A stretch of DNA of 37,898 bases from contig NW_021832754.1 of the NCBI RefSeq assembly GCF_006345805.1, positions 1 through 37,898 of the forward strand, given 5' to 3'. This document shows, in pieces, positions 11,574 through 11,672 of this stretch (positions are counted from its first letter, which is position 1; each line of letters opens with the position of its first letter). This DNA is from Octopus sinensis (Eukaryota). The notes beneath the pieces are model-generated. The model was not told the DNA's origin and did no database searches. It saw only the letters and a program-made list of their open reading frames with translations. A program made the position numbers and the translations under genes.

Positions 11574-11672
11574 TTCGTAGCCAATTCCTCATCAGTCAAC
11601 GTCCAAAAGACCATTACAATTTCGCTCCTTTAACGTTGATATTGTTCACTTTTGGTGGAATAACCAACGAAC
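11574..11672 (-). ncRNA. Putative reverse-order (pseudoknotted) hammerhead-like motif, type 3
   Basis: Minus strand: ccaaaag..ACAAU-A-UCAACGU..ggagc-GAA-AUUGU..cuuuugg-ACGUUGA-CUGAUGA. Helix III 5 bp, helix I 7 bp and extra helix 7 bp are all perfect. Confidence 0.6.

Follow-up and report, generated by a model that had tools for sequence, protein, structure and literature searches.

A decayed 3'-terminal RNA module of a probable Penelope-like repeat in Octopus sinensis and the strand-rearranged hammerhead predicted for its intact relatives

Canonical hammerhead ribozymes are said to occur in Penelope-like elements, reportedly described there by Cervera and de la Pena in 2014. The available text of a recent preprint places canonical hammerheads in non-long terminal repeat (non-LTR) retrozymes and in Penelope-like elements (bioRxiv 10.64898/2026.07.22.740005). 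A second relevant group are the type-SGC hammerheads (HRIMA-1 and variants), a non-circular permutation found in metatranscriptome RNAs, for which cleavage has been shown (Eckert, Friedrich, Weinberg and Weinberg 2023, PMC10085705); in the accessible part of that paper their Block C is uninterrupted, I5'-CUGAnGA-II5'. A third group are the Naiads. According to the portions available of Craig et al. 2021 (PMC8557442), these lack canonical hammerheads, have a (TA)n bias and survive as old remnants in cephalopods, and some carry core halves that fit no descriptor; the supplement lists Naiad_Obim and Naiad_Ovul with (TA)n, and gives Naiad_Ovul the comment 'HHR_half_core'. Here we analyse a stretch of 37,898 nt from Octopus sinensis (contig NW_021832754.1, positions 1 to 37,898; "the window") and, within it, the minus strand of positions 11574-11672. 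We consider it likely that this is a degenerate 3'-terminal RNA module of a non-coding Penelope-like (Naiad-type) repeat of about 0.5 kb, which we name type C. In its intact form the module is predicted to be a self-cleaving hammerhead with rearranged strands, and the window copy, having lost 22 nt, is likely inactive.

Read from 11672 to 11574 on the minus strand, the motif is GUUCGUUGGUUAUUCC A CCAAAAG UGA ACAAU A UCAACGU UAAA GGAGC GAA AUUGU AAUGGU CUUUUGG ACGUUGA CUGAUGA GGAAUUGGCUACGAA. A preliminary description of this locus had called it a reverse-order hammerhead of a third sequence type, and both statements hold. The core parts can be read there together with three perfect helices, CCAAAAG:CUUUUGG (7 bp), ACAAU:AUUGU (5 bp) and UCAACGU:ACGUUGA (7 bp), and two other types, A and B, are also found in the window. 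The predicted NUH triplet is AUA with its A at 11640, as had been proposed. The CUGAnGA strand has helix I on its 5' side (ACGUUGA-CUGAUGA at 11602-11589), and GAAA is present, its A15.1:U16.1 pair starting helix III, with H17 left unpaired ahead of helix I (GAA-AUUGU:ACAAU, A at 11640, UCAACGU). Helices III and I cross, in a pseudoknotted order. Absent from the window copy is a helix II with G10.1:C11.1 between A9 and G12: after CUGAUGA a single G:C pair is possible before a G-G clash, and the partner used by the family, GCGCC, is deleted.

The shortness of these motifs, and nothing more, favours the explanation that core and helices coincide by chance. A loose scan for a site, GAAA and CUGANGA in this order finds 4 sites in the window and a mean of 0.08 in windows simulated with a first-order Markov model (n = 200; 185 of them with none), so the match in the window is not a chance one. 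Since, in addition, the motif belongs to a repeat family whose helices covary between subfamilies and between families, we take coincidence to be refuted, with a practically negligible residual probability. The string CTGATGA occurs at 10 sites of the window, only one of them in a reverse-order hammerhead context; the other nine were rejected as ribozyme candidates, having no hammerhead context.

The genome searched has 2.72 Gb. A DNA search gives 363 first-look candidates, and the 40 of these that we scored are 72-89% identical to the window copy; its identity to full-length paralogs is 72-79%. The first alignment includes 32 type C copies. For a sample independent of the ribozyme, we used a 26-nt anchor in the 3' flank, found at 90 places with at most two mismatches (0 for the control), which adds 76 new regions. 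A profile of 128 positions then has 105 matches, corresponding to 103 unique type C copies. The family consensus is GUUCGUUAGCUAUUCC CAGUGGC UUUUC GCCACUG GCGCC A CCAAAAG UGA ACAAU A UCAACGU UAAA GGCGC GAAA UUGU AAUGAU CUUUUGG ACGUUGA CUGAUGA GGAAUUAGCUACGAA, and its CUGAUGA (profile positions 102-108) is matched by 84-93% of the 103 copies. The parts are, in order, the 5' strand of a closing helix Pa, a hairpin Ph, the 5' strand of helix II (GCGCC), an A, the 5' strand of a helix Pb, UGA, the 3' strand of helix III, the A of the cut site, the 3' strand of helix I, UAAA, the 3' strand of helix II (GGCGC), GAA, the 5' strand of helix III, AAUGAU, the 3' strand of Pb, the 5' strand of helix I, CUGAUGA, and the 3' strand of Pa. 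In Pa, UUCG-U-UAGCU-AUUCC at the 5' end pairs with GGAAU-U-AGCUA-CGAA after CUGAUGA. Ph follows Pa directly, and G36 of GCGCC follows Ph directly and pairs with C73, the base before G12. GCGCC is complementary to GGCGC, the strand preceding GAAA, and intact copies obtain G10.1:C11.1 only by way of this non-contiguous strand. The Pb strand CUUUUGG runs directly into the helix I strand ACGUUGA. Between AUUCC and CCACCAAAAG the family has the hairpin CAGUGGC-UUUUC-GCCACUG and the GCG of helix II, 22 nt in all; this is the 5' domain that the preliminary description had rightly noted as missing from the window copy.

We counted pairs over 67 rows, made up of 62 copies extending to the module's 5' edge, four rows of a variant subfamily and the window copy. 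The complementarities are kept among the paralogs, with 84.4% of the cells paired, compared to 82.6 ± 0.3% in shuffles (none of 500 reaches the observed value) and 29-43% for slid partners. Cells changed on both sides number 79, compared to 41.7 ± 5.4 in shuffles (again none of 500) and 46-53 for slid partners. The variant subfamily (L081, L090, L105, L087) is, at the level of sequence, stronger support for the helices than these counts. Its helix III is GUGGU:ACCAC in place of ACAAU:AUUGU, with four of the five pairs exchanged, its Pb is CAAGAC:GUCUUG, and the outer pair of helix II is U:A for C:G at a position that is not a CpG. Our automated comparison of helices across families left out three variant-subfamily copies whose cores are decayed, and some of its Pb and Ph rows are spurious short helices.

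The same part order recurs in other sequences. Type A, on the plus strand near 30719 (30569-30785), reads ACAGU C UCAAGU ... GAAA CUGU AAGGAC ... AGCUUGA CUGACGA AAGAAGGC, with the Pa partner GCUUUCUU upstream; this copy is decayed, and its helix II lacks the 10.1 pair. Type B, on the minus strand at 25262 and 24468 (25196-25412 and 24402-24618), has Pa GAUCCUUC:GAGGGGUU, Ph UUCCAGGAAA...UUUCUUGGAG, helix II GGCUGG:UCAGCC, helix III UAGUAAU:AUUACUA and helix I UCAAGA:UCUUGA. Its two copies, 794 nt apart, have an identical 86-nt motif and differ by one base over stretches of about 217 nt, hence type B is probably young. The loop that separates helix III from Pb in type B (UGAUC / CGAUGAUC) departs from the pattern of a simple kink-turn. 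The consensus end of Naiad_Obim, taken from the available part of Craig et al. (PMC8557442), is GACACC G CCGGAU UGA AUGGU A CUGCCC A GGUGUC GAAA CCAU AAUGAU AUCCG UG GGGCAG CUGAUGA, ending in UUUUGAUAU. A 19-nt motif of Naiad_Obim has 713 matches in the octopus genome and none for the control, which puts the Naiad copies at 713 or more, and the 12 Naiad loci that we inspected agree with the consensus and end beside (TA)n or (CA)n. Type C and the Naiad 3' end have in common the order of the parts from the hairpin and the helix II 5' strand to CUGAUGA, the end UUUUGAUAU next to (TA)n, and partial tandems. They differ in every helix (Naiad I CUGCCC:GGGCAG, II GACACC:GGUGUC, III AUGGU:ACCAU, Pb CGGAU:AUCCG), and type C, at about 0.5 kb, is short and non-coding and has the longer Pa (UUCG...CGAA). 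One part order, with different helix sequences, is common to type C, type B and Naiad copies; in other families the predicted cleavage triplet is AUA, GUA or AUC. Judged from these sequences, type C has the design of the octopus Naiad 3' end, of which it is a sequence-diverged relative.

A kink-turn consists of a canonical stem, a 3-nt bulge, tandem sheared G.A/A.G pairs and a non-canonical (NC) stem. The type C loop between helix III and Pb fits this general consensus by its sequence, with UGA opposite AAU-GA-U and with G85 and A86 conserved in 88% and 86% of the copies. Like simple kink-turns such as Kt-7, as commonly described, it sets AUUGU-AAU-GA-U-CUUUUGG opposite CCAAAAG-U-GA-ACAAU; unlike them, its 3b.3n pair is U.U. 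The kink-turn-like loop is kept in Naiad and in type A. The window copy has GG for GA, with G replacing the A of the second G.A pair, which is lost. In the fold that we propose for the intact module, the UGA / AAU-GA-U loop would be a kink-turn that turns Pb back, so that it leads from the distal end of helix III to that of helix I. A perfect four-way junction without unpaired bases would unite the G.A-paired core with Pa, Ph and helix II, and this junction would set G10.1:C11.1 beside A9 despite the break in the chain. The RNA would cut after A17, trimming the transcripts of tandem insertions of the pseudo-long terminal repeat (pLTR) type and releasing a 3' fragment, and this fragment would then be copied into short insertions.

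Among the closest known designs is the type-SGC hammerhead, as presented in the accessible portion of Eckert et al. (PMC10085705). Both have the site strand, the GAAA strand and the CUGAnGA strand in the order S, G, C, both have all the core nucleotides, both are pseudoknotted, and both have a short linker between the 3' strands of stems I and II (UAAA in type C, typically 3 nt in type-SGC). The uninterrupted Block C is not found in type C, where CUGAUGA is followed by the Pa strand (GGAAUUAGCUACGAA) paired with the far 5' end. Unlike in type-SGC, block S is preceded by the helix II 5' strand (GCGCC), which Pa and Ph would bring to the core, a kink-turn-like loop joins helix III to Pb, the host is an animal retroelement, and cleavage is here only predicted. 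The octopus design breaks the assumption of an uninterrupted Block C made in that part of the paper, and the underlying family is, by its predicted structure, a variant of permuted hammerhead not covered by the published type-SGC definition. The words kink, k-turn and four-way are absent from the text and supplement text of PMC10085705. The comparison with the canonical hammerheads of Penelope-like elements is different: there as here the core is in the repeated 3' or pLTR part of tandem retroelements and of their non-autonomous derivatives, but those are type I three-way junctions found by Rfam-type descriptors, whereas type C has another topology and goes undetected. We found no published description of the split-core design in the literature searched on hammerhead, Penelope-like/Naiad and permuted ribozymes.

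The 5' ends of truncated copies bear on cleavage. While 62 of the 103 copies reach the 5' edge of the module, 41 do not: 27 are genuine truncations, preceded by unrelated DNA or a microsatellite, 4 are the variant-subfamily rows, 9 have internal deletions or a diverged 5' part, and 1 is unclear. The predicted cut falls between profile positions 57 and 58. Six of the 27 truncated copies start at positions 55-58 (binomial P = 1.6e-4), and 15 start at positions 55-65 (P = 7e-10). We see in this cluster a possible indirect footprint of a reverse-transcribed 3' cleavage fragment, not a proof of it. Seven truncated copies start at positions 63-65 (UUAAAGG), 6-8 nt downstream of the predicted cut, several of them right after (TA)n; our guess for this second cluster is a microhomology of UUAAA with the (TA)n target. 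The motif could instead be a structured 3' element recognised by the reverse transcriptase (RT) or endonuclease of a retroelement, which does not cut and in which the hammerhead-like core is a relic. The motif does lie just upstream of the place where reverse transcription would begin; according to the available text of PMC11167929, initiation in Penelope-like elements is internal and close to the 3' end, and cleavage of a canonical element was dispensable in vitro. Against this reading, CUGAnGA, GAAA, the U-H site and G10.1:C11.1 are all kept in at least three families with differing helices, and the 5' ends of truncated copies cluster at the predicted cut; we hold it to be improbable. We also observe inverted head-to-head pairs of 5'-truncated type C copies at L060:165-310, L081:199-391 and L090:446-685; the joint of the L060 pair is 2-3 nt from the predicted cut.

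Several observations weigh against reading the family as a self-cleaving Naiad-type module. Paired cells exceed the shuffles by a small margin, and kinship without structure can yield such an excess. The proximal Pa helix has none of its six pairs changed on both sides, and some of the double changes in helices I and II affect CpG sites, which decay quickly on either strand. No more than 6 of the 27 truncated copies start at the cut, and the seven-copy cluster at 63-65 relies on an assumed TA microhomology. In the part available of Frangieh et al. 2024 (PMC11167929), cleavage of a canonical Penelope-like element is dispensable for insertion in vitro, and no reads end at the site. No autonomous partner is tied to type C beyond a similar 3' end. 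Finally, neither the window copy nor any of three intact copies is matched by an Rfam hammerhead model. In the window there is no Rfam match at gathering score, and around the site there is none to a hammerhead at E-values up to 10; in three loci with intact copies the Rfam hammerhead models have no match at E-values up to 1. The permissive Rfam search returns only microsatellite-driven, miRNA-like noise around the site and in the three intact loci. The absence of Rfam matches is expected because helices I and III cross, in a pseudoknotted order. Nested minimum free energy (MFE) folds have z = -1.5 for the window copy and z = -0.8 to -3.5 for the three intact copies, by a method that is unsuited to a pseudoknotted fold.

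Weighing these points, we lean towards the view that a working hammerhead, of a topology not among the six block permutations, is present in Naiad-type elements and in their short non-coding riders. In it the CUGAnGA strand would be cut off from helix II, rejoined to it by a perfect four-way junction and closed by a kink-turn. It would supply the ribozyme that Naiads reportedly lack, and the decayed deletion copies would mark its dispensable parts. The window copy itself appears to be a dead relic, yet it leads to a family of interest. In their predicted fold, the intact type C members break the rule behind the enumeration of hammerhead permutations, that the three core blocks are never interrupted, and with the kink-turn and the four-way junction they suggest how an RNA rearranged in this way could fold. 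If the design cleaves, Naiads, reported without canonical hammerheads, would have one after all, and ribozyme searches based on descriptors would have to admit split blocks. Whether it does can be tested in octopus tissue, given that truncated insertions cluster at the predicted cut.

Turning to the state of the window copy, it lacks exactly 22 nt (Ph and the G-C-G of helix II), and CC at both edges of the gap (11658-11657) forms a microhomology. The preliminary description had left a choice between a natural minimal version and a deletion derivative; the paralog alignment and a junction search decide for the deletion derivative. In the alignment the short 5' part is a private deletion, without a match in the inspected family copies. 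The junction has 368 matches in the genome at up to two mismatches, versus 149 for the control pattern read backwards; we inspected all 12 with at most one mismatch, the other 356 having two. Among these 12 are the window itself, L040 (a family copy truncated at its 5' end) and 10 unrelated places, so the same junction was found in no other family copy among them. Different, independent deletions in the same hairpin region are found in L002, L006, L023 and L093, which looks like recurrent loss at a stable hairpin Ph. Deletions that recur in and around Ph suggest that copying passes over the hairpin or that it is unstable as DNA.

An artefact of assembly or sequencing at the hairpin, with a full module at the real locus, would also produce a 22-nt gap. 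Hairpins collapse easily, and the assembled contigs over 11575-11659, from runs of presumed RNA, derive from a paralog that lies within a contig of 2078 nt and differs at 8 of 85 nt. We regard such an artefact as highly improbable, since the window copy has many other private substitutions typical of an old insertion and other copies show different, real-looking deletions at the same place.

The window copy differs further from the family by GGCGC to GGAGC and AAUGAU to AAUGGU. With the deletion and these changes in helix II and in the kink-turn-like loop, it is likely dead, and we give residual activity little chance. The preliminary description had offered two pairings for AUUCC (11661-11657), with GGAAU (11588-11584) or, as UUCC, with GGAG. 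Both exist in the sequence, but in the family AUUCC pairs with GGAAU, and the strand preceding GAA has its real partner in the deleted GCGCC; the UUCC:GGAG pairing is thus accidental, a product of the deletion. A working minimal ribozyme could make use of that pairing, with UUCC (11660-11657):GGAG (11628-11625) and the G after CUGAUGA paired to C11.1 rebuilding a short helix II, in which the private C-to-A change restores a U:A pair. The A of GGAGC does pair with a U of the new strand, and the three transitions in Pa all keep their pairing as G.U. AUUCC, however, is also needed for the longer and contiguous Pa, where the MFE fold of the window copy puts it. GGAGC occurs also in L012 and L025, both of which keep the 5' domain, so that the C-to-A change is not tied to the deletion. 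With a junction unique among the matches inspected, the kink-turn A lost, and an identity of 72-79% to full-length paralogs, as neutral decay predicts, we find a working minimal ribozyme unlikely. We expect that AUUCC most likely remains in Pa, leaving GGAGC unpaired and helix II unformed. We take the compact form for a private deletion, carried by a copy that is probably dead, and not for a new minimal ribozyme. In Table 1, we report the features of the locus.

Table 1. Features at and around the type C module of the window, with the basis of each assignment.
Feature	Position	Strand	Basis
Type C repeat copy: 3' part of body, ribozyme module and 3' end; downstream member of partial tandem	11545..11855	-	BLAST, 72-79% identity to other copies
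Pa 5' strand UUCG-U-UGGUU-AUUCC, partner 11588-11574	11657..11671	-	sequence, family alignment, pair counts, MFE fold
Junction of private 22-nt deletion; hairpin Ph and G-C-G of helix II 5' strand gone	11656..11659	-	alignments, junction search
Pb 5' strand CCAAAAG, partner 11609-11603	11649..11655	-	sequence; 85% of family cells paired
UGA, non-bulged strand of kink-turn-like loop	11646..11648	-	sequence, profile; general kink-turn consensus
Helix III 3' strand ACAAU, U16.1 at 11641	11641..11645	-	93% paired; 4 of 5 pairs with two-sided changes
Predicted cleavage site, A17 at 11640 followed by U at 11639	11639..11640	-	hammerhead core analogy; 5' ends of truncated paralogs
Helix I 3' strand UCAACGU, partner 11602-11596	11633..11639	-	sequence, pair counts
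Linker UAAA, helix II 3' strand GGAGC at 11628-11624 (family GGCGC), GAAA	11620..11632	-	sequence, profile
Helix III 5' strand AUUGU, A15.1 at 11620	11616..11620	-	sequence, pair counts
AAUGGU, bulged strand of kink-turn-like loop (family AAUGAU; G at 11611 private)	11610..11615	-	sequence, profile
Pb 3' strand CUUUUGG	11603..11609	-	sequence, pair counts
Helix I 5' strand ACGUUGA (11602-11596) and CUGAUGA (11595-11589)	11589..11602	-	sequence
Pa 3' strand GGAAU-U-GGCUA-CGAA	11574..11588	-	sequence, pair counts, MFE fold
Element 3' tail 11573-11543 (31 nt, short form) and target microsatellite (AT)16, 11542-11511	11511..11573	-	sequence, alignment
Upstream partial copy, pLTR-like tandem member; part of 5' domain kept; decayed core (UUGAUGA; GCA for GAAA)	12425..12558	-	alignment
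Unrelated, very abundant repeat inside body of downstream unit	11857..12243	.	repeat comparison among loci

The type C element around this module belongs to an old family and has units of about 0.5 kb, with partial tandems in which the unit is 496-529 nt. In L008, 71 nt of a 521-nt unit are repeated; L025 repeats 190 nt of a unit of 496 nt, and L029 224 nt of one of 529 nt. The two window copies (11545-11855 and 12425-12558) form a partial tandem colinear with L025 and broken by an unrelated repeat at about 11857-12243. This region had been a candidate for the 5' part of the type C unit, and was rejected as an unrelated abundant repeat. Contigs of four runs reach summed depths of 1e4-1e6 over this repeat, which is also found next to many other loci. 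At the 3' end, the motif had been described as abutting (TA)n at 11542; the element tail of 31 nt (11573-11543) separates it from the (AT)16 tract. Type C copies have (TA)n or (CA)n at their 3' ends, and 9 of 32 copies, the window copy included, lack an extension of about 27 nt (CCGUUUGUUGUGUUUUUGUUAAAUU) before UUUGAAAU. These two forms of the 3' end resemble the optional tail, of about 30-40 bp, of Penelope-like elements, which in the accessible text of Frangieh et al. 2024 (PMC11167929) is tied to two start sites of reverse transcription. With (TA)n targets, partial tandems, inverted pairs and an apparent optional tail, type C has hallmarks of Penelope-like elements.

No ORF (open reading frame) of at least 80 aa belongs to the window copy. 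Nor did we find an ORF with a GIY-YIG endonuclease and RT in the type C element: the upstream ORFs of 29 loci are microsatellite artefacts or belong to an unrelated young long interspersed nuclear element (LINE). As it has no ORF, type C is taken as non-autonomous, and it is most likely a rider of Naiads, because it appears to share their module and their 3' terminus. The upstream ORFs of 12 Naiad loci contain no clear RT. An ORF of 298 aa upstream of L015 (G000:C10:31255212-31258416) was considered as an autonomous partner and rejected, because it belongs to an unrelated LINE that ends before the type C copy; 200 aa of this ORF have no Pfam match. The LINE family at L015 is young, with 92-97% identity and 7154 first-look candidates, and the ORF is a C-terminal remnant.
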